From sequence record PX063913.1: a DNA stretch of 44,574 bases; one strand, written 5' to 3'. The notes beneath the pieces were generated by a model. The model did not search any database. It had not been told where the DNA came from and saw only the letters and a program-made list of their open reading frames with translations. Position numbers and translations under genes: made by a program. This document shows positions 1 through 44,574 of this stretch, piece by piece (the stretch's first letter is position 1; each line of letters opens with the position of its first letter). The DNA comes from a phage.

Positions 1-1707
1 ATGGCAGCGGGTACACTATCCGTAACGAATAACAGCAAGGCGGTTGTCGGGGTAGGCACGACGTTTACCGCGTTTAAAGCAGGCGACTTCTTATCGCTGG
101 TAGTGGGGCAAGTTCCTTACACTGTTGCGATCTCGTCCGTAGAAAGCGACACCGCGCTTACGCTTGTGCTGCCGTTCGACGGACCAACGGCAACTGGCCT
201 CGCGTGGGATGGCGTTAAGCGCGATACCATGTCGCTGGCAACGATGGGCGTAACCGTCCAGGCCCAGAAAGCGTTGCGCTTGATGCTCGCGGACGAAAAT
301 AACTGGCGCGCAATCTTCGGAGACGAGGAAGAAATCGCGGTAACGCTGCCGAACGGGCAAGTTATGCAGGGTATGTCATGGGGCTATCTGTCGCAATTGC
401 TGAAGGAAGTTGACCCTGTTGAGATGCGCAACCTGCAACAACAAGCCGCCGCATCTGAAGCCGCCGCGCTGGTATCGCGTAATGAAGCAGAAGGCTTCAA
501 GAACGACGCCAATACCATCAAGACGCAGACCGACCAAATCAAGGCCGATACGCAGGCGATCCACGACGCCACCAACACCATCAAGACGCAGACGGATCAG
601 ATTAAGGCGGATACGCAGGCCATCAAGGACCAGACGAACCAGATTAAGACTGAAACCGGCGTTATTCGCGACGAAGCTAATACGGCGAAGACTGACGCGC
701 AGGCCGCCAGCGCTGCCGCGCAGGGATTTCGCGATCAGGCCGAAGAATGGGCACAAAGCGTAAACGCCGATAATCTGCTAACCAAATCCAGCAACCTGGC
801 GGGGCTAACTGATAAATCGGAGGCGCGCTCTAATCTTGATTTGGGGTCTGTTGCCACTGAAAACACCGTCCCTATCGAAAAAGGCGGCACTGCGGCAACA
901 ACGGCAGCGGAGGCGCGCTCTAATTTCGGGTTGGGGTCTGTTGCCACGGAAAACACCGTTCCGATCGAGAAAGGGGGAACCGCCGCGACGACGGTAGCCG
1001 CTGCGCGCACTAATTTCGGGTTGGGCGATAACAATAACGTAAAACTTGGCACGTTGCGCCTAAACGGTGGTGAATCGCTAGTCTTCAATGATGTCGAGCG
1101 TAACGGTTTGATTATATCCAACGCGTCTTTCGGGATTGATAGCTGGGTTGGGCAGACGATGCATAAGTGGTACACGGATTGGACGCGCGCGGGCCTAGTA
1201 AGGGCCGGGGATACCCACTTATCAGACTACCGCGTCCATGTGTGGAAGGACGGCTTTACTGAGTCGCTATTCCGATTCCTACCGGACGGCAGGCTTATTA
1301 GTGGTAACAGCGTCAACCCGTCGGTTAACGAGTTCCAGAAAGCGCCGCTATCAGACCGCGACCTTAAAAAAGAAATCAAATACACGGACGGCGAGGAAAG
1401 TTACAACCGAGTTCGACAATGGCTTCCGGCGATGTTCAAGTATAAGGAGTCGGACGTACAGCGATACGGCCTTATCGCGCAGGACCTGGCACGGATTGAC
1501 CCGGAATACGTGCATTTGCTGCCGGGTTACGCCATTTATGAGGACGTCAAGGGGGTGGACGAGGAAGGGAACGAGGTTGTAGTAGATCGGAAGGAGATCG
1601 GGTATACCGACGATGTGCTGTCTTTGGATAGTAACGTGCTGTTGATGGATCTGTGTGCCGCCTTCGTCCACCTGTTGCATAAAGTGGAGAAGCTGGAAGG
1701 TAAATAA
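1..1707 (+). CDS. Tail fibre protein with C-terminal intramolecular chaperone (peptidase S74-like) domain
   Basis: ATG at nt 1, 568 aa. Two in-frame tandem repeat blocks: nt 511-690 (20-aa units NTIKTQTDQIKADTQAI) and nt 820-1027 (28-aa units RSNxxLGSVATENTVPIEKGGTAATT). C-terminal SDRDLKKEIKYTDG...YGLIAQDL resembles the autoproteolytic chaperone motif of phage fibres and endosialidases. Terminator follows. Confidence 0.7.
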   Translation: MAAGTLSVTNNSKAVVGVGTTFTAFKAGDFLSLVVGQVPYTVAISSVESDTALTLVLPFDGPTATGLAWDGVKRDTMSLATMGVTVQAQKALRLMLADENNWRAIFGDEEEIAVTLPNGQVMQGMSWGYLSQLLKEVDPVEMRNLQQQAAASEAAALVSRNEAEGFKNDANTIKTQTDQIKADTQAIHDATNTIKTQTDQIKADTQAIKDQTNQIKTETGVIRDEANTAKTDAQAASAAAQGFRDQAEEWAQSVNADNLLTKSSNLAGLTDKSEARSNLDLGSVATENTVPIEKGGTAATTAAEARSNFGLGSVATENTVPIEKGGTAATTVAAARTNFGLGDNNNVKLGTLRLNGGESLVFNDVERNGLIISNASFGIDSWVGQTMHKWYTDWTRAGLVRAGDTHLSDYRVHVWKDGFTESLFRFLPDGRLISGNSVNPSVNEFQKAPLSDRDLKKEIKYTDGEESYNRVRQWLPAMFKYKESDVQRYGLIAQDLARIDPEYVHLLPGYAIYEDVKGVDEEGNEVVVDRKEIGYTDDVLSLDSNVLLMDLCAAFVHLLHKVEKLEGK

Positions 1708-2351: not shown

Positions 2352-2906
2352 TTATTTAAGTGCACCAGTCACTAGTGTTTTTTCCATGTTGCGGAAATCT
2401 TCCGGCGTCATGAGGATTTTAGATCCGTCTTCACCAGTGAGCACGACCATAGGCTGGACGTCCTGGGCTTCAACTCCAAAATCGCGGGCCTTAACCGTCT
2501 TGCCGAACGAGGCTACCGTGTCCTCTGCAACGCGAATTGCGCTGTTATACGCATTAATCTCGCCGTCCAGGAGCACGGACAGACCTTTGAGGCTGTCGAA
2601 TTGTGCTGCCGTTGTATCGATCTGAATCTCGTCATGCACGGTCATGTAAGACTCGCCCAGCAGGGCGGCATACGCCACCAGGTCCACGATGTTATCTTCC
2701 TGGTGCTTACGGTGCTGGCGCACCAGCTTCAGGCAGATCAGGAAGGTCCAGGCTTCTTGCTCGGTAAGGTCGCGACCGGTAAGCGCGTTAAACACGGCAG
2801 CAATTTGTTTAGCGCTGCGTTCTTCTTTCGCGTTGTCATAGCCGTTTTCTTTCCCGCGCTGTTCCATAGTGGTGGCGGCGTTTTTGCAGTATTCGAATGC
2901 TTTCAC
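2352..2906 (-). CDS. Conserved phage protein, possible all-alpha NTP pyrophosphohydrolase-like
   Basis: 184-aa ORF with GTG start at 2906 after AAGGG. Motif IAAVFNALTGRDLTEQEAWTFLICLKLVRQ...DNIVDLVAYAAL resembles conserved phage MazG-like or DUF-type proteins; assignment from memory of family motifs only. Confidence 0.4.
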   Translation of the reverse strand: MKAFEYCKNAATTMEQRGKENGYDNAKEERSAKQIAAVFNALTGRDLTEQEAWTFLICLKLVRQHRKHQEDNIVDLVAYAALLGESYMTVHDEIQIDTTAAQFDSLKGLSVLLDGEINAYNSAIRVAEDTVASFGKTVKARDFGVEAQDVQPMVVLTGEDGSKILMTPEDFRNMEKTLVTGALK

Positions 2907-3661: not shown

Positions 3662-4127
3662 GTAGTTCTCCTTCGCTCATTATTTCAATTTGTGCGCTGC
3701 CGCTGGGCGGCGCTTCGTCAAAGATTATCAACTGCTGGCACTTGTTATTGCTCGGCCCGACTTCACCGGTTACAGCGTGTATAAATCGGATACGCCAGTC
3801 CAGAAGAATTATCAGGTTTGCAGTCTTCCGGGCCAACCGCGCCCACTTCGTCGACGTGTCCTGATTCAGTAGCATGACGGTCCGACGTCCATGCGCCGCA
3901 CACTCGACCCACGGCAGCGGATCGGAATACGGCGGGTTGCACCACTTCCACCCTTTCAACTCTGACCAGTCCACATCGAGCGCGCTGTGCTCCGCCGTGA
4001 AGTAACGCGGTAGCAGATGGTTGGCGTCGCTTGCCGCCATGTCATAACGGAATCGGTACTTCCGGCGCAGCGGTTTAAATAAAGCTGGCGGCGTGCGCCA
4101 GCTATCTTTTTGCTCACTCTTCTGCAT
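3642..4127 (-). CDS. DNA N6-adenine methyltransferase (phage Dam-like)
   Basis: WRTPPALF...FRYDMAASDANH...WCNPPYSD matches the phage N6-MTase family including the catalytic NPPY motif. Confidence 0.8.
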   Translation of the reverse strand: MQKSEQKDSWRTPPALFKPLRRKYRFRYDMAASDANHLLPRYFTAEHSALDVDWSELKGWKWCNPPYSDPLPWVECAAHGRRTVMLLNQDTSTKWARLARKTANLIILLDWRIRFIHAVTGEVGPSNNKCQQLIIFDEAPPSGSAQIEIMSEGELREYLNR

Positions 4128-4572
4128 GATCTGGATCTATCGCGTACAGGGCAATTTTCTTATTACTGTTTAGAACGCGTTGCACGCGCTTTGATTCCTC
4201 GGTGCCGAGCGGTCGGCAGTCGGAGTAGTAAGACCCGTTCCCTCGCCACGCAACCAGCACCAGGTCTTTCCGGCCAATCTTAGACGTGCGGCCCTTCGGA
4301 CGCACGTACTCCTCGGCCCGTTTGCAATGCTCACGCAGCCCGTCGGCAGTGATGCGGTTTAGTGCAACGCTGGTGGTGTATCCGGTGCGCTGCATAATCC
4401 CCATCAATTCGAATAGCAGTTCGAAGCGCTCCTCTAACTCCATGCGACGCTTTTCTTCCGTTTCATAGCTTGACAGGTAGGTATCTGCCAGCGCGCTGAC
4501 GCGTTCTGCCTGCTCGCGGGCTTCGAGGCATTGCGCGGCCCAGTAGTTTTTCTCTTCTTGTAAAATTTTCAT
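4114..4572 (-). CDS. Hypothetical protein
   Basis: 152-aa ORF, ATG at 4572 with GGAGA upstream; no recognisable motifs. Confidence 0.5.
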   Translation of the reverse strand: MKILQEEKNYWAAQCLEAREQAERVSALADTYLSSYETEEKRRMELEERFELLFELMGIMQRTGYTTSVALNRITADGLREHCKRAEEYVRPKGRTSKIGRKDLVLVAWRGNGSYYSDCRPLGTEESKRVQRVLNSNKKIALYAIDPDHAEE

Positions 4573-4815
4573 TTATTTAATCTCCGTTGTGCGAATCTCA
4601 TTGCGTGGGATAAATTTGCCGTCCATCTCCACCCAGCAGACTCCGTATCGCCATTGGGTGTTACGGCCTGTTTGCTCGGCATACACGGTCTTGCATTCGT
4701 AGCGTTCCGTGTAGTAAATAGCCGTCGAAGGTATGCCAATACAACCGGCAATCATGAGGGTGAGTAGCACCCAAAATCGAAGGTCGCCGTCGTAGTCGAA
4801 AAATAATGATTTCAT
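4573..4815 (-). CDS. Small membrane protein
   Basis: Start moved to the internal ATG at 4815 (MKSLFF...), preceded by GGAGACAGTGAG; one hydrophobic helix WVLLTLMIAGCIGI. Confidence 0.5.
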   Translation of the reverse strand: MKSLFFDYDGDLRFWVLLTLMIAGCIGIPSTAIYYTERYECKTVYAEQTGRNTQWRYGVCWVEMDGKFIPRNEIRTTEIK

Positions 4816-4834
4816 CTCACTGTCTCCAGGTATT

Positions 4835-4859
4835 AAAAAGGGCGTCCAACCGGACACCC
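4835..4859 (-). terminator. Rho-independent terminator-like hairpin (minus strand)
   Basis: On the minus strand GGGTGTCC-ggtt-GGACGCCC followed by T5, between the HNH gene and the small membrane gene. Confidence 0.5.
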
Positions 4860-4895
4860 TCAATATAATGCAACCAATATGCTTATGCAACCAAT

Positions 4896-5219
4896 TTACG
4901 CATAAAAATTTGGGTCGCGCGCTACGTCTACCAGATACAGGTTACTAATGCGGTTGCCGTAATGGCCTGGCGTGCGCTGGCGGCACACAACGGCATAGCC
5001 TGGAGGGATTGTATTGCCAGTCTCAATAATCCACGCCACGCGTGCGCCAGACAGCGTCTTGCCGTTGCATTCGATACGAGTACCGCCATCGGCAGTATTG
5101 AGGTTGCCAATCTTGCAGCCGGTGGACTTTAGGCGGATAACGCCTGTTTTGCTGTCGTAGGAAAAAAGCTGATTGGTCATTGCCACTGAAAAATCGATGG
5201 CTTCGAATGTAGTGTTCAT
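4896..5219 (-). CDS. HNH homing-endonuclease-like protein
   Basis: LFSYDSKTGVIRLK...CNGKTLSGARVAWIIETG...NRISNLYLV resembles HNH_3 family endonucleases; active-site residues may be degenerate. Confidence 0.55.
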   Translation of the reverse strand: MNTTFEAIDFSVAMTNQLFSYDSKTGVIRLKSTGCKIGNLNTADGGTRIECNGKTLSGARVAWIIETGNTIPPGYAVVCRQRTPGHYGNRISNLYLVDVARDPNFYA

Positions 5220-5911
5220 TCTAAATTTTCCTCATTGACTGCGATTGCGAAGCCGCGCGGGGTGAGCGACCTGATTAATTTGGTGCGGGCGGATTTGCCT
5301 CCGAGGCGACTATACTGCTTCGAGTACCCTTTTTCAACGAAAACAGGTTTCTTCTCTGGCATACGGAAGCCGTTGCCCGTCCATAAGCAGGTCAGCTTCG
5401 GATATGAATCGCGGGCGTTGATGTATTCCGGGAATAACGGGTGCACGTCATCCTCCGGCAAATAGCCGCCATACTCCCACGGGTCAAACGAGTGGTCCGG
5501 CTTACGCCATTGAGTGGAGAGCACGCTGCGCGGATTCTCAATCATATACGGCACTTCAAAGAAATCACCCAGATAAGCGGCGATCTTCGCGGTGCGTACC
5601 GCCTTAAGCTGGAAGGCAGGGTCGCGGGCGCGTTTGCGCGGGAAAGCTGGCGCACCGCTAACCGCCAGATCCGTACACGGCGGGAATGCATAAATGATAT
5701 CCGGCGTGCCGAAATCACCATTCATCGCGCGGTCCACGAAGTCCAGATCGATAAACTCATTACGATATCGGATACCGCGCCCATAAATCCGGTAGTCCAG
5801 GTACGACCCGTGATCTGCTTCGGAGTAGTTGAAGCAGTAACACTTATGCCCCATCTCGGCAGCACGTTCAATCATCAAGCCGCTGCCGTCAAATAATGAC
5901 CAGATAATCAT
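5216..5911 (-). CDS. Short DNA cytosine-5 methyltransferase-like protein
   Basis: SLFDGSG (motif I-like), FPPCTDLAVSG (PC motif IV-like) and MIENP (ENV motif VI-like); only 231 aa with no obvious target-recognition domain. ATGA overlap with the HNH gene. Confidence 0.5.
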   Translation of the reverse strand: MIIWSLFDGSGLMIERAAEMGHKCYCFNYSEADHGSYLDYRIYGRGIRYRNEFIDLDFVDRAMNGDFGTPDIIYAFPPCTDLAVSGAPAFPRKRARDPAFQLKAVRTAKIAAYLGDFFEVPYMIENPRSVLSTQWRKPDHSFDPWEYGGYLPEDDVHPLFPEYINARDSYPKLTCLWTGNGFRMPEKKPVFVEKGYSKQYSRLGGKSARTKLIRSLTPRGFAIAVNEENLE

Positions 5912-8094: not shown

Positions 8095-10382
8095 TTTCTG
8101 TACCTGTACATAATGTCGCCTTCCGCGGCAAGCGGGAAGCCTTTCGCCCAAACAGGCAGGTCGCACATCAGCGCGCACAACTCCTCGGTTGTGTAGTCGT
8201 CGGTATCCGGCACTTCGGTGATCAGTTCATCGTGTACGGACAGTACGATCTCATACCCCGCAGCTTCAACGCCCGGCATGGACCATGCGAGGATATCGCG
8301 GCACAGCGCCTGCACGATGTTTTCCGTCAGTTTGCCGCCGTAGGTGTACTGGAATCCCCACTGGCGCGTCGTCTGATTCTCACCCTGATATTTAATGCGG
8401 GTGCTGGTGCGCTTCTTGCCGGTGTCTTCGTCGATCTCGGTCGTCACTGACAGCGCAATGCCTGGGTAACTCATAATACGCCCCGACGGCAACTCAATTT
8501 TCAACCACCACCCCGCGGCGTTCGGGTCGTCGCGCTCCTCGTCGAAGGTTGGGTCATGCTTCGCCTTCGTGCGGACTATCTTGAGCGCTTTCTTACCATC
8601 CGGGCGAACGTTCGCGCCAGCCCAGTACGCTTTGCCCGGATTGCGGATTGCACACAACACCGCGTCCTCAAGCTCGGCCCAAAAAGCTACCGTCTTCGGG
8701 TGAGCCTCGCGCCACATGCGTTTAATCGCATCACACGTAAGCCATACGTTTTTCGGCAGTATGTAAGTCGGACGCTCGTCCTTCTTGCCCGGCTTCGGCG
8801 GTCGCTTCGCTTCGTTAATGCGGGCGTATTCATAACCACGTTTCGCCGCCGCCCAAATGTGATCGGGGAATGTGCCCTTCATCACTTCCGCCATCGCGTA
8901 AAGGTCGAGGCCCAGATTTTTAGCGAACTGCAAGAACGCCGCCACGCCACCACCATAGCCCAGGCCCAATTCGCACGCCTTACCGATCTGGCGTAAGTCT
9001 TTGCGGTTGGCTTTAATGTATTCTGGGTCAAGGCCGAACATCTTGCCGGCAGTCTCACAATAGATATCGCGACCGGCCCTAAACACCATTAGCGCGGTTT
9101 TCTCGCCAGCGATCCAGGCAAGTCCACGCCCTTCCACGTTGGAGTAGTCCGCTACGACAAACTTCTTACCCTTCGCCGGAATAATGCACCCGCGGACAGT
9201 CGAGGCCGTTAGCTTCGATATGTCATACGCCCAGTGCGCTGTCCCACGTAACAGGGAGTTGATGCCGTTGGTGAGCATGTGCGACCGCACCCAAAAAGCG
9301 ACGTCGCTCTCGCCTTCACGGCGTTTAATCTTCCCTTCGTGGTCGTCGCTATATTCGCCGCGTGCCAGGTTTTGCGGCTGGAAGCCTTTACCGGCCCAGC
9401 GTAGCGTGCGCTTTGCGCCGCCATACTGAAGACACCCACGGCGGCGACCATCGGCGGATAGGCCATTAACGAGCGGATTGTACTTAGTCGACGCCGTGGA
9501 TGACGCACCGAGGCGCATCTCGATAAGCGCTTTGCCTTCGTCCGGGAAGTCTGGATCTTCCAGCAGGTCGTTAAGCGTGGATTTCTGCGCGTTGTGGATT
9601 GTGAACGCAGGCGCGAGGTCGCGCAGCGCGGGCAGGAAGTCATTGCCGGTTAGCTTACCGCCGAAGCGCTCCCAGGCTTCTTCCTTTAATTCTTCCTTAT
9701 GCGCCTGTACCGCTTTGATCGCAGCGCGTGCCAGGTCAACGTCCACATAGAAGCCGCGGTCGTTAATCAACTGGTCAATAAGCAGGATTTCGTCTTCCTT
9801 CGGCGTATTACCCCAGTCCGGTATGCGCCAATAGACTTCCCTCATCGCGATGATATCCAGCGCGGCATAGCGCAGGAATTTAGCCCATTCTTCAGGGTGA
9901 GTCTCGCGGGTGTAGCGGCGGATTTTGTAGGTCTTAGGGGTTGGCTTACAGAAGCGTTTGATCAGCGCCTTGCCAGCCTTATCCTTCGCGTGTTCTGCGT
10001 CAACGCCCAGCACCTGGCATTGCATGTCGAGACTACCCGGCAGCGCGTGTCGGAAGGCCATAATCATGGTGTCTTCGATCTGGCCTACCGGCAGGTCAAT
10101 GCCCCACTTCTCGCGAATAACCAGGCGGTCAAACAGGAGGCCGTTAGCCATCACGATTTTTGCTTTCTTGCGAGATACCCGGCGGAGCGCCTTGCGCAGT
10201 TCACGCGGCATTGTGGGGGACTCGGTGCAATCCCATGTCTGCACGCGGCCCTCGTCGATGGCGTAGGTGCAAATCATAATCTCGGTGGTTGGGTGCTCTG
10301 CGTAGGCGTATGCGCCAACTTTCTTCAGGTCTACCCCGCTAAATGTCTCGGTATCGAGAAACAGGCGTTCGAAGTCTTTCAT
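8091..10382 (-). CDS. DNA polymerase, family A, with 3'-5' exonuclease domain
   Basis: Exo I LFLDTETFSG, Exo III YAALDIIAM, Pol motif A VVADYSNVEGRGLA, motif B RQIGKACELGLGYGGG, motif C VLSVHDELI. Confidence 0.95.
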   Translation of the reverse strand: MKDFERLFLDTETFSGVDLKKVGAYAYAEHPTTEIMICTYAIDEGRVQTWDCTESPTMPRELRKALRRVSRKKAKIVMANGLLFDRLVIREKWGIDLPVGQIEDTMIMAFRHALPGSLDMQCQVLGVDAEHAKDKAGKALIKRFCKPTPKTYKIRRYTRETHPEEWAKFLRYAALDIIAMREVYWRIPDWGNTPKEDEILLIDQLINDRGFYVDVDLARAAIKAVQAHKEELKEEAWERFGGKLTGNDFLPALRDLAPAFTIHNAQKSTLNDLLEDPDFPDEGKALIEMRLGASSTASTKYNPLVNGLSADGRRRGCLQYGGAKRTLRWAGKGFQPQNLARGEYSDDHEGKIKRREGESDVAFWVRSHMLTNGINSLLRGTAHWAYDISKLTASTVRGCIIPAKGKKFVVADYSNVEGRGLAWIAGEKTALMVFRAGRDIYCETAGKMFGLDPEYIKANRKDLRQIGKACELGLGYGGGVAAFLQFAKNLGLDLYAMAEVMKGTFPDHIWAAAKRGYEYARINEAKRPPKPGKKDERPTYILPKNVWLTCDAIKRMWREAHPKTVAFWAELEDAVLCAIRNPGKAYWAGANVRPDGKKALKIVRTKAKHDPTFDEERDDPNAAGWWLKIELPSGRIMSYPGIALSVTTEIDEDTGKKRTSTRIKYQGENQTTRQWGFQYTYGGKLTENIVQALCRDILAWSMPGVEAAGYEIVLSVHDELITEVPDTDDYTTEELCALMCDLPVWAKGFPLAAEGDIMYRYRK

Positions 10383-10549
10383 TGCTTAATCCTCACCACG
10401 GCGTCAGCACTGCCGATCACGGAGAAGATGCCGTCGGAAAGGGTAATCTCCTCGCCGTTGTTGCGAATCTCGGCAACTGTGAAATATTCGCCCAGCATTT
10501 TGGACCATACTTGCATTCCGACTTTTACTTCGCTGGCTTTAATACGCAT
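10379..10549 (-). CDS. Small hypothetical protein (not in ORF track)
   Basis: 56-aa ORF MRIKASEVKVGMQVWSKMLGEYFTVAEIRNNGEEITLSDGIFSVIGSADAVVRIKQ; AGGA 9 nt upstream; stop overlaps the polymerase ATG (ATGA). Confidence 0.45.
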   Translation of the reverse strand: MRIKASEVKVGMQVWSKMLGEYFTVAEIRNNGEEITLSDGIFSVIGSADAVVRIKQ

Positions 10550-10565
10550 TTTTCATTGTCCTATT

Positions 10566-10589
10566 AAAAAGCCCGCATTAAGCGGGCTT
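10566..10589 (-). terminator. Rho-independent terminator (minus strand)
   Basis: On the minus strand AAGCCCGC-ttaat-GCGGGCTT followed by T5, just downstream of the SSB gene stop. Confidence 0.6.
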
Positions 10590-10607
10590 GAATAGTGGGC
10601 TTTGCCC

Positions 10608-11330
10608 TTAACGGCGGCGACGTTTACGTGGCGCTTCGTCTTCGTCATCATCGTCGTCATCGCGGCGCTTGGACTTTTTGGACTTGCGCGGCTTGTCCTC
10701 TTCGTCATCGTCATCACGACGTTTTGACTTTTTGGACTTGCGCGGGCTTTCATCTTCGTCATCGTTGTCCAGGTCTTCGTCGGAGCAAGAAGAACCGCCA
10801 CCGCCGAAGGATTCACCATCATCGCGGAAGCGCAGACCCAAAAGACCAGCACCGAGTCCCTTGCCGTTGGTATTGTTCCACGCCCAGATATCGAGTGACA
10901 CGTTGCAATAACAACCGGAGTAGATCTCCTGGCCTTCGATCTCGTCGCCTTCTACGGTCAGACCTTGTTCCGTCTGCTTCTCGCCGAGTGACGTTTGAAT
11001 GATCGGCTGTTTGAACGATTTGGCGTTGATGTACAACATGCCTTCGAATTCTTCGGTTACTTCGTCGCGCTCGTCACCGTCGCGAACTGCGCATTCCTTA
11101 GAATCCTGGGCGTAGTGGCGGTCCATCCACTTATCAGCATTCTTCTCGGATTTCAGCTTGTCGGTGAGCACTGCGCGCGCTGCCGCTTCCACTTTGTCCA
11201 CCTGCGGATCTTCTTTATCCAGAAGAATCACTGCACGGTATGCCGGTTTTTGACCATCCTGTTTAGGGGTATCGCGTTCCCAAATTTTAAGGAAACATAC
11301 GCGCACATTTTTCAGGTTGACTTTAGCCAT
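10608..11330 (-). CDS. Single-stranded DNA-binding protein (DUF2815 / T7 gp2.5-like)
   Basis: Start at MAKVNLKNVRVCFLKIWE (ATG 11330); YSGCYCNVSLDIWAWNNTNGKGLGAGLLGLRFRDDGESFGGG matches the DUF2815 SSB family. C-terminus is a tandem-duplicated acidic/basic tail ending RKRRRR. Confidence 0.6.
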   Translation of the reverse strand: MAKVNLKNVRVCFLKIWERDTPKQDGQKPAYRAVILLDKEDPQVDKVEAAARAVLTDKLKSEKNADKWMDRHYAQDSKECAVRDGDERDEVTEEFEGMLYINAKSFKQPIIQTSLGEKQTEQGLTVEGDEIEGQEIYSGCYCNVSLDIWAWNNTNGKGLGAGLLGLRFRDDGESFGGGGSSCSDEDLDNDDEDESPRKSKKSKRRDDDDEEDKPRKSKKSKRRDDDDDDEDEAPRKRRRR

Positions 11331-11420
11331 TTTCCAATTCCTCATTTTCACATGTATCGGGGTTATTGTGAGCCACCCCGTTCGGCTTGGTTGTTAATCT
11401 ACTTGGTTGCACCTAAGCGG

Positions 11421-11663
11421 TCAAGCATTTTCGTTAAAAAGATTTCGGGTCACGTAGTTAGTGGCGTTCTCGATCCAGCTTAACGGCGGTCGGTCGATGT
11501 TCTTCTCCACCCAGTCGACGGCAGCGTCACTATACCCGTCATCCAGCCAGCGGGTCGGATGACGAATCATCCACGCCACCATTAACACGCCTTGCACGCA
11601 ATGCAGGATAAAGCCCAGCGCACCGAGCAAAAACATCAATAAGATTGCAAATACTTTATTCAT
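11421..11663 (-). CDS. Small membrane protein
   Basis: N-terminal hydrophobic helix VFAILLMFLLGALGFIL; GAGGA upstream of ATG 11663. Confidence 0.5.
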   Translation of the reverse strand: MNKVFAILLMFLLGALGFILHCVQGVLMVAWMIRHPTRWLDDGYSDAAVDWVEKNIDRPPLSWIENATNYVTRNLFNENA

Positions 11664-13086
11664 TGCTTAAGTCCTCGTCAGTAGCTTCTGACCACGCAGG
11701 ACGCGGGTCGTCGATCGGTGCTAACACCGGTTTAGCTGGCGCGCGTGTGATTTTATCACACAGCTTAGCCCACACTTTCGGTTTTTCGTCCTTCAGTACC
11801 TTCTCGGCATCCGTAGGGCTGAGCAATGTTTCTTTGTACATCACATCGCGCTTGATCCGGGCCTTCGTGAAGATTTCAATCGCTTCGCTCTCGTCCGCCC
11901 ACTTGCGGATCCCTTCCTTACCGGCGACCATCTTGAGGCCCAGCGATTCGCCGTCGCCCGCCATTACCGCCTTGAATACCGCGGACTCGATAGCCTTGAT
12001 GTGCTGGCGCATTGCGCCCAGGCCTTCATAAGCCTTGCGCAGTTCCGCCGCGCTCATAGCGCCTGGTGTGGATTCATTCTTGCCTCGTTTAGCACGTCGG
12101 GCAGCCTTCCGGGCTTCACGGGCCATGTTGCGATCGTGGTTGGCGCATTCTTCCTCGGTAGCCACGCTCACGTCGTCGCCCAGGTCTTCGTCGGTTGCCG
12201 TTGGTGGTGTCATAGTGTCGATTGCGGCCTTCGCCCGGACGCTGCACTGGTCCGCAAATCTGCACCACTGGCACGCATCAACGCTGGGCCGGAAGTCGGC
12301 GCGGGTGAGTCCTTTTTTACCACGGGCGTACGCTTCCAGTGCGGCGATAGCACGCTTGGACGCAAACTTCGCGAATATCTCCAGCGCTTCCACTGAGATA
12401 TCCCACTCTGACGCCCCGCCGCAATACGGCTGGAAGATAACCAGGCGCACGGTCGTAATGTCGTACATGGTTTGCAGCTTGCGCAGCAGGCCGAGCGCGT
12501 ACAACATAAGCTGTTTGTTTTCTTTTGCCTCGACCTTATGTCGCCCGGTCTTCAGGTCGCCAACAATCAGCATGTACGTGCCGTCGGTCTTTTTCATGAC
12601 CATGACCATATCGGCAGTTCCGAACGTCTTAACCTTGTTGCCGTCGATCTCGAAGCCTGAGTGAAGGACGCGGGTAAGATCGGCGCGCATCTCAAGCTGG
12701 ACAAACTCCGCCACTTCAAGGAGCGGACGCCAGTGGTCGATGTATGCATCGCACTGCTTCACCATGTCGTCGTTGACCAGTACGCCGCCTTTCGGTGCTT
12801 TCGGGTGGGCCTTTACTGGCCCCTTGCCTTCGTTCTCGACGTAGCACCCTTTATACGTCTTTGCTGTTATCAGCTTTTCACCGGCGATAATGCGGTTTAG
12901 CACCACTTCAGATACGGTGTGCATACTCGTACCGTTAATCGCGGCTTGCCCGGATTCGTTCGGGATATCTTTTTCCACCACCAGGGCGGCGGGACACCCC
13001 ATCCATTTTTTAGCACCGGATGGGCCAAGTAATGAGTGTTCCGTATTACTACCGGATTGCGTTTTACGTTTTGGTTTAATCGCCAT
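11656..13086 (-). CDS. PD-(D/E)xK nuclease, DUF2800-like (RecB/Cas4-type)
   Basis: N-terminal HSLLGPSGAKKWMGCP and C-terminal Cys cluster CQWCRFADQC are typical of the DUF2800 family that accompanies DUF2815 SSB in phage replication modules. Confidence 0.65.
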   Translation of the reverse strand: MAIKPKRKTQSGSNTEHSLLGPSGAKKWMGCPAALVVEKDIPNESGQAAINGTSMHTVSEVVLNRIIAGEKLITAKTYKGCYVENEGKGPVKAHPKAPKGGVLVNDDMVKQCDAYIDHWRPLLEVAEFVQLEMRADLTRVLHSGFEIDGNKVKTFGTADMVMVMKKTDGTYMLIVGDLKTGRHKVEAKENKQLMLYALGLLRKLQTMYDITTVRLVIFQPYCGGASEWDISVEALEIFAKFASKRAIAALEAYARGKKGLTRADFRPSVDACQWCRFADQCSVRAKAAIDTMTPPTATDEDLGDDVSVATEEECANHDRNMAREARKAARRAKRGKNESTPGAMSAAELRKAYEGLGAMRQHIKAIESAVFKAVMAGDGESLGLKMVAGKEGIRKWADESEAIEIFTKARIKRDVMYKETLLSPTDAEKVLKDEKPKVWAKLCDKITRAPAKPVLAPIDDPRPAWSEATDEDLSNE

Positions 13087-39227: not shown

Positions 39228-39835
39228 CCACGTTTAAATTGTACGGCGTCTTAGGGCGTCGTTTTGGTAAAGTGCATAAGCTGGACTGCTTCACACCGGG
39301 AGAAGGCATCACCGGCCTGTGTGTGAAGTTACCCGGCTTACAGGACTTTCTAATGTCTGCCCACCTGGACAATATGATGTTCAAGGTGCGCAAAGGCAAC
39401 CACACGATGTCCGGCTATGATGAACTGGGCGAGTTCCACGGCAACCGCGTCGTTACCATCGCGCCGGTTATGACTGGCGCAAAAAGCGGATTGGGCCAAT
39501 TGCTGGCGGGTGTCGCGATCGTAGTGGCGTCGTTCTATACGGGCGGACTTGCTACTGCCGCTTTCGGGGCTTCGGCGGCAACCGCTGCCGCTATCGGTAC
39601 AGCGACGTTTTCGTTTGGCATGTCGCTTGCGCTTGGCGGTGCTATGCAATTGCTCTCGCCACAGCCGAAAGGATTGCAGACACGGCAGGACGTGGATAAC
39701 AAAGCGTCGTATGCGTTCGGCGGACCGGTAAACACGACCGCACAAGGTACGGCACTTGGTGTATTATGGGGCGAGCGTGAGATCGGCGGCGCTATTATTT
39801 CAGCCGGAATCGTAACCGAGGACTTGAACGAATGA
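39218..39835 (+). CDS. Tail assembly protein, lambda gpI-like
   Basis: N-terminus MAMTTFKLYGVLGRRFGK and a glycine/alanine-rich hydrophobic C-terminal region; sits between K-like and J-like genes. Confidence 0.7.
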   Translation: MAMTTFKLYGVLGRRFGKVHKLDCFTPGEGITGLCVKLPGLQDFLMSAHLDNMMFKVRKGNHTMSGYDELGEFHGNRVVTIAPVMTGAKSGLGQLLAGVAIVVASFYTGGLATAAFGASAATAAAIGTATFSFGMSLALGGAMQLLSPQPKGLQTRQDVDNKASYAFGGPVNTTAQGTALGVLWGEREIGGAIISAGIVTEDLNE

Positions 39836-42800
39836 CGATTGTCTATGACGTCACAGGCCATAAAGGCGGCGGTGGAAAACAGCACACCCCACAGGAGACA
39901 CCCGATAGCCTGCATTCTCTGGCTAAAATCCGCATCTTGCTTGCGCTGGGAGAAGGTGAGTTCGAAGGTATTCCAGACCCTAACGAATTACGGCGGCGCG
40001 TATATCTGGACGGAACACCGATCCAGAATGCAGACCTGTCTGAAAACTTCCCCGGCGCGCGTGTGGAGTTCCGCCCCGGAACACAGCACCAGGATGTGAT
40101 CCACGGATTTTCAGCGGTGGAAAGTGAGCAATCTGTCGGCGTAAAGCTGGAAAACGGCACGCCGTGGGTGCGCCAGATTAACGACACCAGTTTGGACGCC
40201 GTGCGCATTCGCATCGGCATTCCTGCCCTGTACACAAACGAAGATAATGGCGACCTGGTGGGCGGGCGCATCGACTATAAGATCGTTGTGTATACGGATA
40301 ACGCGGACCCGCGTGAGTTCAGATTCGCCGCCGTTGGTAAAACAATGTCGCTATATGAGCGCGACCACCGCATCGAATTACCGCCGAACGTTAACACCGG
40401 CTGGCGCGTGGAGATGCACCGCATAACGGCAGACTCCACATCGGCGAAAGTGGTTAATGATATCCAGGTGCAATCCATCACTGAGATTATTGACGCCCGC
40501 CTGCGTTATCCGCTAACCGCGCTGTTGTTCGTGGAGTTCGACGCTAAAGCGTTCCAGAACATCCCGCGCGTGTCCATTAAGTGCAAAGGTCGCAAAGTTC
40601 TAATACCGAACAACTACGACCCGATTAATCATACTTATTCCGGGGACTGGGACGGCACGTTTAAACGCGCATGGACGGATAACCCTGCGTGGCACTGGTA
40701 CGATATTTGTATTACTGAGCGCTTCGGACTCGGTCGGCGTATCAAACCGCAAATGTTAAACCGGTACGCGCTCTACCAGATTGCGCAGCGCTGCGATCAG
40801 TTGGTCAGCGACGGCAACGGTGGTCGAGAAATCCGCTTTAAGAATGATATGTACATTCAGTCACAGACGGATGCCTGGACCGTGCTTAAGGATTTGGCTG
40901 CCATCTTCGCCGGAATGACCTGGTGGGGCAACCAGATGTTGAATATCGTCAGTGACCAACCGGTCGCAGCAGTGTCGCATACTATCACCAACGCATCTGT
41001 TATTGATGGGCGATTCGACTACGCATCTGGCAGCCAGAAAACTCGCTATTCCACATTCGCGGTAGCATACGGCAATCCGAAAAACCACTATGATGACGCT
41101 ATCGCAACGGGCCAGCGCGTCGAACTGGTGCGCCGCCATAAGATTAACCGTCTTGATATTACGGCGATCGGCTGTACGCGCGAGTCAGAAGCGCAACGCC
41201 GCGGGCACTGGGCGCTAATATCCAACCAGCTTGACCAGCAAGTTAGTTTTAAGGTTGGCATGGAGGGGTTATTCTTTATCCCAGGTAGCGTAGTCGCGAT
41301 CGCGGATACAAACATTTCTGGCGGATTCGAGACTCGCGGAGGTCGCCTGTTGTCGGACCCCGGAACGCGTACCGTGCTGAACACGGACAGCGAAATCACA
41401 TTCCGCCCTGGTGATAAGTTCCTGGTGCGCACCGATAGCGGTAATGTGGAGGCCCGCGAGATCGCCAGCGTCAACGGCAACAAGGTCACGCTAAAAACCG
41501 CACTGGATGCCGACCCGATCCCAGATCAGCCGTTTTGTGTTGATGGAGATGATATCCAGTTGCAGAAATTCCGCATCACCGATCTGGAATATGACGACTC
41601 TACCAGCACTTTCTCGGTGCGCGGGATTGAATACAACGATAGCAAGTATGATGCCGTTGATAATGGCGCTCGCCTTGACCCAGGCATCTTTACGCAAGTG
41701 CCGGACGGTGTAATGAAGGGGCCAGAATCCGTGACCATCACCCCGTCGCAGATTTCATCGCAAGGCCAGCTAATCACCAACGTGGATATTGTTTTCCCGC
41801 CGGTGAAAGATGCCGTGGTGTATGAAATACAGTGGAGGCGTACTAGCCTGCAGAATATGGAGATCCAGTGGGGTAACGACTGGGTGAATATCCCGCGCAC
41901 GGCGTCGAATGGGGCGCACATCCCTAACGTGTTCTCCGGTAACTATCAGGCACGCGTCCGCGCAATTGGTATGGGCGAAATCTCGTCCCCGTGGGTGTCT
42001 TCCGCGATCACGCCGGTGGAAGGTCGCCTCGGTGGGCTTAACGCCCCAATCATCACCAACGCGATTTCGGGTCTGCACCAGATTCTATGGAAGTGGAACC
42101 ACAACAACGCTGCGACTGATATCTCATACACCGAGCTTGAAGTGCGCAAGACGGGTGAAACGGAATGGAAATTCTTAACAAACGTCCCCTATCCTGGCGC
42201 GGAGTACGCGCAAACGTCGCTGGAGTTCGGCATATACCAGCAGTTGCGCGCCCGTGTAGCGGATAAAATCGGCAACCTGTCGGACTGGTCCGCCCCGTTC
42301 GAAGGCCAGGTGAGTGACAAAGTTGACGAGTACATGAAGGGGCTTGATGACGAGTTCTTGACTTCTGAGGATGGTAAACACTTCCAGGAAGCTATTAACA
42401 CGATCCCGCAAGGCATTTATGAGTCAATGCTCACCGACGCCCAGCAGCTATTCAACGCCCGCGCCGAGTACAAAGGGATTTACGCAGAAATCAAGGTCGC
42501 ATATAACGTGGCGGCAGACGCCCACAAGGCCGTCGCGCAACTGGAAACGTTGATCGGCACTCGCCTTGACGATGCGGAAGCGGCAATCCACACGTTGCAG
42601 ACAGCGCAAAGCACGCACGAGCAAGCATTCGCCCAGTATCAGCAAACTGTTGCCGCTAAGTTTGGGGAACAGGACGCCGCCATACAGCAGGTACAAACGG
42701 CAACGGCGGACGTGGCTGGCGCACTGGCGGAGTACAAGACCCAGGTGGCGGCACAGTTCGGTCAGCAGTCTGCAGCTATCGAGCAGAAGATGACGTCTTC

Positions 42801-43278
42801 GTTTAACCATGCTGGTGGCAGCGCAACATATAGCCTTAAGGCGGGCGTGACGTATAACGGGGCTTACTACGACGCCGGTATGCAGCTTTCCGTCGTTGCG
42901 GAAGGCGGCGCGGTTAAATCACGCATCGCGTTCAAGGCGGACCAGTTCTACATCATGCACCCGTCGAATGGGTCGCTTTCGTCCGCGTTTATTGTTGACG
43001 GCGGACAGGTGTACATTGACACCGCACGCATCAAGAATGCGTCCATCAACTTCGCACAGATCACGGACACGCTGCAATCAAATAACTTCGTTACAGGGTC
43101 GCGCGGCTGGCGTATCTGGAAGGATGGCGGTGCGGAGTTTAACCAGGTAACGGTACGCGGCAACCTGTACGCCACATCCGGTAACTTCGGATTCTCAGGT
43201 GGGACCGTGACTATCGACGCAACTGGCGTCAACGTGCCATTACCTGGCGGGGGCAGGGTGAAAGTCGGGACGTGGTGA
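39832..43278 (+). CDS. Central tail fibre / host specificity protein, lambda gpJ-like
   Basis: 1148 aa, last gene of the tail operon, ATGA-coupled to the I-like gene. Confidence 0.85.
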   Translation: MTIVYDVTGHKGGGGKQHTPQETPDSLHSLAKIRILLALGEGEFEGIPDPNELRRRVYLDGTPIQNADLSENFPGARVEFRPGTQHQDVIHGFSAVESEQSVGVKLENGTPWVRQINDTSLDAVRIRIGIPALYTNEDNGDLVGGRIDYKIVVYTDNADPREFRFAAVGKTMSLYERDHRIELPPNVNTGWRVEMHRITADSTSAKVVNDIQVQSITEIIDARLRYPLTALLFVEFDAKAFQNIPRVSIKCKGRKVLIPNNYDPINHTYSGDWDGTFKRAWTDNPAWHWYDICITERFGLGRRIKPQMLNRYALYQIAQRCDQLVSDGNGGREIRFKNDMYIQSQTDAWTVLKDLAAIFAGMTWWGNQMLNIVSDQPVAAVSHTITNASVIDGRFDYASGSQKTRYSTFAVAYGNPKNHYDDAIATGQRVELVRRHKINRLDITAIGCTRESEAQRRGHWALISNQLDQQVSFKVGMEGLFFIPGSVVAIADTNISGGFETRGGRLLSDPGTRTVLNTDSEITFRPGDKFLVRTDSGNVEAREIASVNGNKVTLKTALDADPIPDQPFCVDGDDIQLQKFRITDLEYDDSTSTFSVRGIEYNDSKYDAVDNGARLDPGIFTQVPDGVMKGPESVTITPSQISSQGQLITNVDIVFPPVKDAVVYEIQWRRTSLQNMEIQWGNDWVNIPRTASNGAHIPNVFSGNYQARVRAIGMGEISSPWVSSAITPVEGRLGGLNAPIITNAISGLHQILWKWNHNNAATDISYTELEVRKTGETEWKFLTNVPYPGAEYAQTSLEFGIYQQLRARVADKIGNLSDWSAPFEGQVSDKVDEYMKGLDDEFLTSEDGKHFQEAINTIPQGIYESMLTDAQQLFNARAEYKGIYAEIKVAYNVAADAHKAVAQLETLIGTRLDDAEAAIHTLQTAQSTHEQAFAQYQQTVAAKFGEQDAAIQQVQTATADVAGALAEYKTQVAAQFGQQSAAIEQKMTSSFNHAGGSATYSLKAGVTYNGAYYDAGMQLSVVAEGGAVKSRIAFKADQFYIMHPSNGSLSSAFIVDGGQVYIDTARIKNASINFAQITDTLQSNNFVTGSRGWRIWKDGGAEFNQVTVRGNLYATSGNFGFSGGTVTIDATGVNVPLPGGGRVKVGTW

Positions 43279-43285
43279 ATGCGAA

Positions 43286-43306
43286 GGGGCCAGATGGCCC
43301 CTTTCT
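43286..43306. terminator. Bidirectional rho-independent terminator
   Basis: GGGGCC-agat-GGCCCC followed by TTTCT, between the convergent J gene and the minus-strand gene. Confidence 0.6.
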
Positions 43307-44270
43307 AATACATGTTAGGGATGACTAGTAAAGGTGTGGGTACGGTCACATTACGATTAGGCATCTGGAATTGCTGCCGTGAGTAGTTACCGATCACGCG
43401 ATTTCGTGCCGCGCTAACCACGTTGCCAGCCATGCGTATCCCGTTCATTCGCACGTGGTTGTATCCGCTGTTGTTCTCAATGAGCGCGCCGGTATATGAG
43501 AGCTGTACGAGGCTGTTGCCAATATTCTGACCACCAGTGCTGATATTAATTACGGAATTGAGGACAAACGGCTTATTCACCGTGGAGAACGTGACCTGGC
43601 CCTGGTTGTTAGTCATGGTAATGCCGGTCCCCGGTGCTGGCGGCGTATTGTTGAAGATCACCAGGTCCATATCCACCGAAGCCGCCACATCGTCAATACC
43701 ACCATAGGACGCGTTGCGGACGATAATACTACCGCCGTCGAATCCTACCGACACGTTGCCGTCATCCCAGCGCGCGAACGGGATGCCACCCACCGGCAGC
43801 GGCATACTGCCGTTTACACGCACGCGCTGCGCGTATCGGCAGGTCATTAGCCGGGATACGTTCGATATCGCGGTGAAGTCAGTCGAGTTCGCCACCAGTA
43901 AGCCAGCATTGCGCGACCCAACCGGCAGCACTTCCATAATTATCCCAGCCCATTGCGGAAGACCACTGTATGCGTTATACGCGTCCGCACCTCGTAGAAT
44001 AATGCCGTTATCCCCGTTACGTTGTACAGACGTAACGTAGAATGGGTCCGGGAGCACCAGCGTTTGGTCGAAGACCTCAATCACTTCTACCGGACGCGTG
44101 AGCGCAACGACAAGATCCGACCCTGGGGTTAGCGGAGTATTAATGGTCAGCGTCTTATCGGACTGGCAGCGCTGATCAAACGTAGTGCAGTATGACGGAG
44201 CGCGAAGTCCGGCGGTTATCTCCATCACCGGCCTTCCGTCGTTGTAGTCTATAAGTATTCCAGCGCCCAT
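43305..44270 (-). CDS. Candidate receptor-binding protein
   Basis: 321 aa from ATG 44270 with GGGAG at 8 nt spacing; Gly/Asn/Ser/Thr-rich; sits 2 nt downstream of the lipoprotein gene on the opposite strand to gpJ, as in T5-type RBP-Llp loci. Confidence 0.45.
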   Translation of the reverse strand: MGAGILIDYNDGRPVMEITAGLRAPSYCTTFDQRCQSDKTLTINTPLTPGSDLVVALTRPVEVIEVFDQTLVLPDPFYVTSVQRNGDNGIILRGADAYNAYSGLPQWAGIIMEVLPVGSRNAGLLVANSTDFTAISNVSRLMTCRYAQRVRVNGSMPLPVGGIPFARWDDGNVSVGFDGGSIIVRNASYGGIDDVAASVDMDLVIFNNTPPAPGTGITMTNNQGQVTFSTVNKPFVLNSVINISTGGQNIGNSLVQLSYTGALIENNSGYNHVRMNGIRMAGNVVSAARNRVIGNYSRQQFQMPNRNVTVPTPLLVIPNMY

Positions 44271-44272
44271 AA

Positions 44273-44494
44273 TTACCACTCCCGAGATTTAACTGATACC
44301 GTACCAGAGAAGTTGCCGTCACTATCCGCGGACAGGCCGGTGAAGCGCATGTCAACATCCCCGGCAGGGGCTTTTTGCCCGTCAACGTAGCGCAACATGC
44401 AGCTACCGTAAGCGACCGTAATGCAATCGCCGTTGTTACGTTCTACCGCACAGCCGGACAGAAGAACCGCACAAATCACAATTAATGTTTTCAT
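44273..44494 (-). CDS. Small lipoprotein, candidate superinfection-exclusion protein (Llp/Cor-like)
   Basis: ATG 44494 with AGGGGA RBS; signal peptide MKTLIVICAVLLSGC with lipobox LSGC; mature part about 54 aa with two further cysteines. Confidence 0.55.
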   Translation of the reverse strand: MKTLIVICAVLLSGCAVERNNGDCITVAYGSCMLRYVDGQKAPAGDVDMRFTGLSADSDGNFSGTVSVKSREW

Positions 44495-44547
44495 GGTATC
44501 ATCCCCTATATTTGGTTGAGTTTTAGTATTGCACCGCTCGACCAGGA

Positions 44548-44558
44548 TTGCAACCAAT
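44548..44558. promoter_or_regulatory. ATTGGTTGCA motif in the promoter region upstream of the lipoprotein gene
   Basis: TTGCAACCAAT at the window end, upstream of the minus-strand lipoprotein gene; would also lie upstream of the fibre gene at nt 1 if the genome is contiguous. Confidence 0.4.
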
Positions 44559-44574
44559 TTAAGAGGATTCAGCT

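Follow-up and report, generated by a model that had tools for sequence, protein, structure and literature searches.

Receptor-binding protein (RBP) loci were defined downstream of gpJ, and resistance to phages Bas14 and Bas18 (Oekolampad) was mapped to lptD (Maffei 2021, PMC8594841). RBP_Oeko, the receptor-binding protein of Oekolampad, was later solved by cryo-EM in complex with LptDE, the lipopolysaccharide translocon (PDB 9RPT/9RPW/9RQI; Dunbar et al., PNAS 2025, PMC12685063). In the same study, LptD point mutants abolished binding and infection, Gln299 of RBP_Oeko was found to hydrogen-bond LptD Ser350, and the tail-proximal part of the protein was disordered in the maps. The study also placed Rtp45, a lipoprotein of phage Rtp, at the periplasmic side of LptDE (PDB 9RPS, LptDEM-Rtp45). 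LptD has also been predicted as the receptor of Bas83 (BASEL 2025 and a 2026 preprint). Two systems directed at FhuA are available for comparison, namely pb5 and Llp of T5 (van den Berg et al., PNAS 2022, PMC9586334), with pb5 bound to FhuA in PDB 8A8C, and gp19-gp21 of the FhuA-dependent, Cor-type Dhillonvirus JLBYU37 (Lewis et al. 2023, PMC10373560).

The window analysed here, which is the whole 44,574-nt stretch of record PX063913.1, is a Dhillonvirus genome with phage JL1 as its nearest relative. Next to the gpJ gene it carries two minus-strand ORFs, one for a lipoprotein precursor and one for a 321-aa protein (Table 1). Based on the homologies described below, this locus is very probably the LptD-type host-recognition cassette of Dhillonvirus, in which an RBP for LptD is paired with an LptD-blocking lipoprotein. 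Such a reading is already known: the pair was predicted in 2021, cryo-EM structures followed in 2025, and near-identical genes are deposited in GenBank (JL1). The present analysis adds the boundaries of the exchangeable unit and the presence of both protein families in Kuravirus podoviruses.

Table 1. Features of the host-recognition locus and its flanks (positions in the window)
Feature	Position	Strand	Basis or remark
Lateral tail fibre gene, 568 aa, C-terminal intramolecular chaperone domain	1..1707	+	Peptidase_S74 at aa 451-504 (Pfam)
gpJ-like central tail fibre / tail tip protein, 1148 aa	39832..43278	+	Pfam and PHROG 31
Last ~50 codons of J, tip segment in the cassette	43128..43278	+	Co-varies with RBP type
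GC-rich hairpin, 8-9 bp stem, 4-nt loop	43283..43304		Fills the 26-nt stop-to-stop gap between J and RBP
Predicted RBP, DUF6453 / RBP_Oeko family, 321 aa, 34.4 kDa	43305..44270	-	Matches to PF20051 and PDB 9rpt_C
Putative superinfection-exclusion lipoprotein precursor, 73 aa	44273..44494	-	PF24052; SE_Oeko and Rtp45 homology
Signal peptide and lipobox at the lipoprotein N-terminus (MKTLIVICAVLLSGC), conserved arm	44450..44494	-	Common to non-homologous exclusion lipoproteins of other cassettes
Divergent intergenic region, 80 nt	44495..44574		Between the lipoprotein-RBP operon (-) and the lateral tail fibre gene (+)
Ribosome-binding site AGGGGA of the lipoprotein gene	~44507-44502	-	
Candidate promoter, TTGCAA, 17-nt spacer, TGcAATACT	44553-44548 (TTGCAA), 44530-44525 (-10 hexamer)	-	Weak, conserved

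The first-pass annotation had described a lipoprotein with an LSGC lipobox, followed 2 nt later by the 321-aa protein and lying opposite to the tail operon downstream of gpJ. The ORF check returned the same coordinates and lengths. The lipoprotein frame runs from an ATG to a TAA at 44275-44273, and the two nucleotides 'TT' separate this stop codon from the ATG of the RBP gene, which has a GGAG 8 nt upstream. The gene for gpJ on the opposite strand ends 26 nt short of the RBP stop, so that the two genes are convergent. Both minus-strand ORFs can be taken as genuine genes and not chance frames, because they match the Pfam profiles DUF6453 (PF20051; 321-aa ORF, 400.9 bits, E 4e-120, curated cut-off 25 bits) and Phage_lipoprotein (PF24052; 73-aa ORF, 72.3 bits, E 3e-20, curated cut-off 27 bits). 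Two longer versions from the mechanical ORF list were rejected. A GTG start at 44279 would extend the RBP to 324 aa, but the ATG has a ribosome-binding site and agrees with the homologues; MGAGILIDY is also the start used in RefSeq for both JL1 and Oekolampad, as well as in the construct of the solved structure. For the lipoprotein, a TTG start at 44557 (94 aa) was set aside for the ATG on the same two grounds. The order J, RBP, lipoprotein and lateral tail fibre is the same in Oekolampad, JL1, TheodorHerzl and Rtp, and Oekolampad, which belongs to the same genus, also shares the orientation and the lengths of 321 and 73 aa. The J tip of Oekolampad is of the same type as well, while its lateral tail fibre allele differs.

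A homology search of the 321-aa protein against known RBPs, including FhuA, BtuB and LptD binders, had been suggested earlier, and the protein matched was the LptD binder RBP_Oeko. The identity to this protein (Oekolampad gp25, PDB 9rpt_C) was 86.9% over 321 of 321 residues; identities of 88.8% to the Bas83 protein and 32.6% to Rtp44 were found. Residues 4-297 covered positions 1-290 of the 291 in the PF20051 profile, and Gln299 is conserved. Based on this homology, the protein is predicted to cap the J fibre and to bind LptD of the LptDE complex. Its earlier description as Gly/Asn/Ser-rich was only partly correct: Gly reaches 10.0% and Asn 9.3%, whereas Ser, at 6.9%, is ordinary and Val is the most frequent residue (10.6%).

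The 42 differences from RBP_Oeko are partly clustered at aa 237-247, 284-289 and 305-309. Together they could have retargeted a protein of the same family to another outer-membrane protein or to another range of LptD alleles, in which case the LptD assignment would not be transferable. The LptD interface is indeed sensitive, because single point mutations suffice to abolish binding, and O157:H7, not K-12, was the isolation host of JL1, the closest relative. However, members with identities down to 33% (the Rtp44-like proteins of Bas01 and Bas14 compared to that of Oekolampad) are all LptD-dependent, and family and receptor correlate without exception across 12 LptD-specific phages. The partner lipoprotein, moreover, is 95.9% identical to that of Oekolampad, which argues for the same target. 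Retargeting is thus considered very unlikely, and LptD is kept as the predicted receptor.

It is scarcely credible that the 321-aa product is not part of the virion but a 'moron' or membrane protein of the host cell, as the label of PHROG 1265 ('membrane protein; moron, auxiliary metabolic gene and host takeover') and the 'membrane protein' entries in the RefSeq JL1, EK99P-1 and Bas83 records would have it. The membrane label is ruled out by hydropathy, with no segment of transmembrane strength in the protein (maximal 19-aa Kyte-Doolittle mean 1.23, overall GRAVY 0.02), and no signal peptide was found, the N-terminus MGAGILIDYNDGRP not being signal-like. Furthermore, RBP_Oeko was purified as a soluble protein that binds LptDE from the extracellular side, and the gene lies in the tail module, beside J in siphoviruses or beside the tail needle gene in SU10.

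The 73-aa precursor differs from Oekolampad gp26 (SE_Oeko) by 3 substitutions. It also matched PHROG 4281 (E 6e-32) and Rtp45 (PDB 9rps_D, E 6e-8), to which it is 33% identical. The hydrophobic core of its signal peptide reached a 13-aa Kyte-Doolittle score of 2.8. Cleavage at the lipobox L-S-G-C would leave a mature protein of 59 aa and 6.3 kDa, similar to Rtp45, with Cys15 as lipid anchor and an Ala at +2 that implies sorting to the outer membrane. Cys24 and Cys32 align with Cys30 and Cys38, which form the disulfide of Rtp45, in both HMMER and global alignments. A role as an LptD-blocking exclusion factor is supported by these homologues. In 2006, cloned rtp45 was reportedly found to confer resistance. 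The structural evidence for exclusion rests on Rtp45, because SE_Oeko could not be expressed (Dunbar 2025, PMC12685063).

The first-pass annotation had proposed that an RBP and a lipoprotein blocking the same receptor together set specificity and exclusion, and the identities to the LptDE-bound RBP_Oeko and to SE_Oeko, as well as the relationship with Rtp45, bear this out. A Cor-type blocker of FhuA could be considered for the lipoprotein, given a weak match to PHROG 1119 'Cor superinfection exclusion protein' (E 5.7e-4), as could an outer-membrane spanin, O-spanins being small outer-membrane lipoproteins too. Both are most improbable: the match is limited to residues 1-30, gp19 (the Cor-like protein of JLBYU37) has no relationship to the mature part here, the strong matches are to PF24052, PHROG 4281 and Rtp45, the spanin of JLBYU37 is annotated elsewhere in the genome and not at the exclusion locus, and the RBP gene follows the lipoprotein gene after 2 nt. 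Cor homology of the mature protein was ruled out; the weak match arises because the signal peptide is common to several cassette types. The LptD-directed exclusion lipoprotein is thus the reading followed below.

Rtp, a member of the Drexlerviridae and thus of a different phage family, carries the same two Pfam families in a lipoprotein-then-RBP operon that is convergent on the J homologue. The disulfide cysteines and the LptD-type J tip are found in both phages, whereas identity is only about 33% for both proteins, and the Rtp genes abut with a 1-nt stop/start overlap compared to the 2-nt gap seen here. The locus had also been said to mirror T5-type loci. In function this holds, as both phage types combine a dedicated siphovirus tail-tip RBP with a receptor-disabling lipoprotein that is small, located at the outer membrane and facing the periplasm. 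No homology to pb5 or Llp was detected among solved-structure sequences, Pfam or PHROGs, however; they are not detectable relatives, because the solved-structure searches returned only Oekolampad and Rtp chains. The receptors differ as well, FhuA being a TonB-dependent transporter, and exclusion is achieved by long-range allostery in T5, in contrast to LptDE-Rtp45, where EL4 is displaced sterically by way of the barrel lumen.

In the proposed mechanism, the variants of this phage are expected to behave like their characterised homologues. The RBP would dock on the J tip and act as the terminal receptor-binding protein, reaching deep into the LptD barrel from its extracellular opening and contacting loops EL3-5 and EL11, and this deep insertion would make adsorption irreversible. 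Translation of the RBP is probably coupled to that of the lipoprotein gene just upstream, given the 2-nt gap. After export, the lipoprotein would receive its lipid at Cys15 and be delivered to the outer membrane's inner leaflet, where it could bind the periplasmic side of LptDE and push a hairpin up through the lumen. EL4 would thereby be displaced, leaving a superinfecting phage, or one just released, unable to dock its RBP.

The platform for the RBP is presumably gpJ, which matched PHROG 31 ('central tail fiber J') and the Pfam families FNIII-A_GpJ (E 6e-39), Phage-tail_3 and Phage_Tail_Tip (aa 982-1118, E 2e-38). Over the last 60 alignment columns, J is 92% identical to that of Oekolampad and 60% to Rtp43 and to the J of TheodorHerzl, compared to 37-38% to the J proteins of FhuA-type and PTXU06-type Dhillonviruses, which have other cassettes. 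Upstream of the tip the pattern is reversed, with 37% identity to Rtp43 and 89% to the other-cassette Dhillonviruses. On these alignments, the J tip can be said to follow the type of RBP and not the taxonomy of the phage.

The nucleotide homology to JLBYU37 ends at 43127 and resumes at 44448. The exchangeable unit therefore begins roughly 50 codons before the end of J and extends as far as the lipoprotein's lipobox. In JLBYU37 the binding and exclusion genes sit at the same place, with J on one side and the lateral tail fibre gene on the other; the intergenic region is the same, and the lipoprotein signal peptide differs at a single position among the first 16 residues. The mature exclusion protein is nevertheless unrelated, the J tip belongs to another type, and the binding module consists of two small proteins (100 and 224 aa) that are co-directional with J and not opposed to it. 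The same signal peptide is also present in PTXU06 gp37, again in front of an unrelated mature part. The body of J would serve as one arm of the cassette, and the lipoprotein signal peptide with the divergent intergenic region as the other. Because two conserved homology arms flank the cassette, a single double crossover could exchange tip, binder and blocker together. An apparent match in Citrobacter phage HCF1 was rejected as evidence for a separable N-terminal RBP adaptor: it covers only the first 34 RBP residues, whose codons run directly into the end of a J-like gene, and the record is an unverified assembly in which no full RBP gene is annotated.

Both families, DUF6453 and PF24052, also occur in Kuravirus podoviruses. 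In SU10 the trio consists of a tip domain in the gp18 tail needle, the DUF6453 protein gp19, encoded next to the tail needle gene, and the PF24052 protein SU10_0104. It is tentatively proposed, as a possibility somewhat short of probable, that the receptor-switch unit is a co-adapted cassette of three parts (J tip, RBP and mature lipoprotein, ~43128-44447), that the same trio operates in Kuravirus, and that LptD is the receptor there too. If true, LptD would be the terminal receptor of that group.

For annotation, these findings mean that LptD, the essential LPS exporter, is the terminal receptor to be expected for this phage, and that infected cells and progeny should be protected by an LptD-directed lipoprotein. 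In the databases, 'membrane protein / moron' and 'DUF6453' are outdated as labels and due for replacement. Possible uses are receptor prediction, the design of phage cocktails and phage engineering. Cocktails are concerned since point mutations confer LptD resistance and carry little measured cost, and engineering since the boundaries of the cassette are defined to a few codons.

The gap between the J and RBP stops is filled by a hairpin with folding energies of -19.7 kcal/mol (z -3.1) on the plus strand and -16.2 kcal/mol (z -2.8) on the minus strand. No canonical terminator was called by the terminator scan of the window end and the joined context in JL1, because the hairpin has no T-run; it is probably a terminator or RNA-end hairpin for the J and RBP transcripts. 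At the other side of the operon, the first-pass annotation had placed a promoter region at the window end. A divergent intergenic region with a weak conserved candidate was indeed found there, but the sigma-70 consensus scan of 44495-44574 and the joined JL1 context called no promoter on the minus strand. The intergenic region is almost invariant in 6 Dhillonviruses with 4 different cassettes and is present in 154 phage records. The lipoprotein and RBP genes may be co-transcribed from this conserved region, with TTGCAA-17-TGcAATACT as the putative promoter. The one site called, on the plus strand at 44475-44502, would drive the tail fibre gene.

The locus had been called the likeliest hot spot for host-range variation. 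It is swapped as a cassette between Dhillonviruses, with the present allele in 94 of about 158 records, but it does not stand alone. The lateral tail fibre gene, syntenic with the 'lateral tail fiber protein' of Oekolampad and TheodorHerzl, was covered over at least 80% of its length by 14 of 148 matching records. From these matches it can be regarded as a second host-range hot spot, at least as variable as the RBP locus. As a separate observation, a sub-allele of the cassette similar to that of Rtp occurs within Dhillonvirus, in TheodorHerzl and HK578.

The minus-strand gene layout proposed in the first-pass annotation, a 73-aa lipoprotein ORF followed after 2 nt (TT) by a 321-aa ORF and located after gpJ, was confirmed by the coordinates. 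At this locus, the 44.6-kb Dhillonvirus genome is nearest to Escherichia phage JL1 (98.5% nucleotide identity over 43201-44574). The 321-aa ORF, with GGAG 8 nt 5' of its ATG, is convergent with the J-like tail tip gene, and the 26-nt stop-to-stop gap is filled by a GC-rich hairpin (fold energy -19.7 kcal/mol on the plus and -16.2 on the minus strand, z about -3). Since the window's first codon is the ATG of the lateral tail fibre gene, its end represents an 80-nt divergent intergenic region between this gene and the two minus-strand genes.

Coordinates of the receptor-binding protein (RBP)/lipoprotein locus and of related loci in comparison phage records (L004-L010)
Feature	Position	Strand	Basis or remark
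Lipoprotein ORF, 73 aa	ATG 44494 to TAA 44275-44273	-	ORF reading
RBP ORF, 321 aa	ATG 44270, stop ending at 43305	-	ORF reading
J-like tail tip gene, 1148 aa	39832-43278	+	Pfam FNIII-A_GpJ, Phage-tail_3, Phage_Tail_Tip
J tip, last ~50 residues	43128-43278	+	
J/RBP hairpin	43283-43304	both strands folded	fold energy
Lateral tail fibre gene	1-1707	+	
Candidate promoter	TTGCAA 44553-44548; -10 hexamer 44530-44525	-	17-nt spacer, TGcAATACT; conservation; best candidate
Sigma-70-like site	44475-44502	+	ATCACA-16-TATCAT with TG
Shared signal peptide	44450-44494 (window); L004 12425-12643; L008 2275-2544	- (window)	
RBP N-terminus	44228-44270	-	
Kuravirus loci	L010 (SU10, KM044272) 10089-12090; L006 2968-3249; L005 (Bas94) 3677-5666		
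HCF1 (L009) locus	2272-2602		

The lipoprotein starts with MKTLIVICAVLLSGC, comprising a hydrophobic core and the lipobox L-S-G-C with Cys15; the mature form has 59 aa (6.3 kDa) with Ala at +2. It belongs to Pfam PF24052 (Phage_lipoprotein, E 3e-20; PHROG 4281), and the 321-aa protein is a full-length member of PF20051 (DUF6453, E 4e-120; PHROG 1265). Each protein had only one match among all solved-structure sequences. For the 321-aa protein, this was the 327-residue 'tail fiber protein' chain of 9RPT, 9RPW and 9RQI, which is the LptDE-bound RBP of the Dhillonvirus Oekolampad (Bas18), with residues 1-321 paired one to one (E 5e-186); for the lipoprotein, it was the 82-residue 'phage lipoprotein' of 9RPS (E 6e-8). 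The RBP is 86.9% identical to Oekolampad gp25 (RBP_Oeko), 32.6% to Rtp44 and 99.7% to the JL1 protein, and the lipoprotein 95.9% to Oekolampad gp26 (SE_Oeko), 33.3% to Rtp45 and 98.6% to its JL1 counterpart. The three phages share the gene order, orientation and lengths seen here. Gln299 of the RBP, which hydrogen-bonds to LptD Ser350 in the homologue structure, is kept, Cys24 and Cys32 of the lipoprotein align with the Rtp45 disulfide Cys30-Cys38, and its size and outer-membrane sorting signal fit an Rtp45-type exclusion lipoprotein.

The 321-aa protein had been described as Gly/Asn/Ser-rich; the composition count agreed for Gly and Asn but not for Ser, and Val is also abundant. No transmembrane-strength hydrophobic segment or signal peptide was found by hydropathy and N-terminus check, and the label 'membrane protein / moron' is obsolete, as is the database label 'DUF6453'. 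A weak PHROG 'Cor' match of the lipoprotein is limited to residues 1-30 and was rejected, because the signal peptide is common to otherwise unrelated cassette lipoproteins.

For Bas14, Bas18 and five further small siphoviruses, resistance was mapped to lptD (Maffei et al. 2021, PMC8594841). In the structures of the Shigella flexneri LptDE translocon (9RPT, 9RPW, 9RQI; Dunbar et al., PNAS 2025, PMC12685063), RBP_Oeko is deeply inserted into the extracellular side of open-state LptDE with an interface of about 1,700 A^2, mainly contacting EL3-5 and EL11, and LptD D352Y or Y671N abolished both binding in vitro and infection. The exclusion lipoprotein Rtp45 of phage Rtp, solved with LptDE-LptM (9RPS), lies on the periplasmic face, flanked by LptE and LptM; its hairpin runs up the lumen and shifts EL4 by as much as 20 A, a displacement that precludes RBP binding (PMC12685063). 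From these homologue data and the features kept in the window proteins, the pair is very probably an LptD-directed RBP with an LptD-directed superinfection-exclusion lipoprotein, which supports the earlier proposal of an RBP paired with a lipoprotein blocking the same receptor. We infer that the function of the characterised homologues carries over to the window variant, whose RBP differs from RBP_Oeko by 42 substitutions, some of them in clusters at aa 237-247, 284-289 and 305-309. Structural support for exclusion comes from Rtp45, a 33% homologue, because SE_Oeko itself was never expressed (PMC12685063).

All features testable in the sequence place the pair in the published LptD cassette family. 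It is thus already known: nearly identical genes have been deposited and the family is characterised genetically and structurally. The suggested likeness to T5 pb5/Llp holds for the functional logic, which would be the same, but not for homology, as the structure-sequence matches were to other proteins, nor for the exclusion mechanism. Cor-type FhuA cassettes occupy the same slot as the pair but share only its flanks.

For mapping of the cassette ends, the window was joined across its ends and aligned with the FhuA-dependent Dhillonvirus JLBYU37. Homology runs through J to 43127 (91.6% identity), is lost, and returns at 44448, continuing into the tail fibre gene. The right-hand boundary is the lipobox: the signal peptide MKTLI(V/M)ICAVLLSGC and its upstream region are nearly identical in the LptD-, FhuA- and PTXU06-type lipoproteins (the window's, JLBYU37 Cor-like gp19 and PTXU06 gp37), which are otherwise unrelated. 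This segment resembles a homology arm through which cassettes could be exchanged. When the signal peptide plus intergenic region was used as a 145-nt probe, 154 phage records matched. Their matches started at probe position 1 for the same allele, at 15-22 for other alleles, which break at the lipobox, and at 52 for the Rtp-like allele carried by TheodorHerzl and HK578.

The left-hand boundary lies within J. Over the last 60 alignment columns, the window J is 92% identical to that of Oekolampad, 60% to those of TheodorHerzl and Rtp (Rtp43, different phage family), all LptD type, 38% to that of JLBYU37 (FhuA type) and 37% to that of PTXU06 (other type); the corresponding upstream values are 92, 95, 37, 89 and 89%. 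The last ~50 residues thus track the RBP type across phage families and not the rest of J, so the J tip travels with the RBP. Such co-variation is expected if the RBP docks on the J tip, and suggests that these residues form its docking surface; receptor-specific GpJ C-terminal domains described in a 2026 preprint agree with this. The N-terminus of the window RBP (MGAGILIDYNDGRP) has an opening motif similar to those of unrelated cassette-protein families in four comparison records (L003, L004, L007, L008): MAQGIYIDLNDGRKP in Rtp44, MAFGIATWDAQGRP and MANYGALIDLPNGNP in JLBYU37, and VSNYGYAIYDEHGRD in PTXU06. The shared motif may represent a strand used in common for attachment to the tail.

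The spacing of only 2 nt suggests that the two genes are co-transcribed and translationally coupled, which would yield blocker and binder at the same time. The promoter region postulated at the window end was upheld in part: the divergent intergenic region holds a candidate minus-strand promoter that is conserved among six phages carrying four cassette types, but the promoter scan gave no minus-strand call near the locus and no consensus promoter was found for the pair. The sole sigma-70-like call nearby, on the plus strand, overlaps the lipoprotein start codon and would serve as promoter for the lateral tail fibre gene; the 5' ends of the two divergent transcription units may therefore overlap.

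The 5' 2 kb of J matched 158 phage records, 157 with nearly complete coverage, and the RBP-lipoprotein segment matched 94 (59 at full length). About 40% of Dhillonvirus records therefore have no near-identical match, consistent with their carrying another cassette. The locus had been considered the likeliest host-range hot spot; its variability is borne out, but the lateral tail fibre gene is more variable, since only 14 of its 148 matching records reach at least 80% coverage. The same two similarity dips appear in Maffei et al. 2021 (PMC8594841). This gene, the most variable examined in the region, encodes a C-terminal Peptidase_S74 intramolecular chaperone domain (aa 451-504) and, compared with the JL1 allele, has another length and a different central part.

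In Kuravirus podoviruses, both families (DUF6453 and PF24052) are present at separate loci. The SU10 tail needle gp18 has a Phage_Tail_Tip domain, as in the C-terminal part of J; the gene directly after it encodes the DUF6453 protein gp19 (E 2e-23), matching PDB 9rpt_C (E 5e-9), and the early region encodes a PF24052 lipoprotein (SU10_0104, E 3e-36). The SU10 structure paper does not mention gp19, and no Kuravirus-LptD link was found in the literature searched. LptD may be the terminal receptor of these podoviruses, which is a testable lead.

The coliphage-type locus also occurs in phage records whose stated hosts are Acinetobacter, Campylobacter, Aeromonas, Pseudomonas syringae and Vibrio. 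Acinetobacter-labelled NJ01 has 89% and 96.7% nucleotide identity (matches to window 43200-44574 and 39832-41831). These labels probably reflect mislabelled hosts or contaminating coliphages. In Citrobacter phage HCF1, a PF24052-like lipoprotein gene is followed by only the first 34 DUF6453 codons, which continue into the end of a J-like gene. The record carries an unverified-assembly flag, so the truncation reflects either cassette decay or misassembly.
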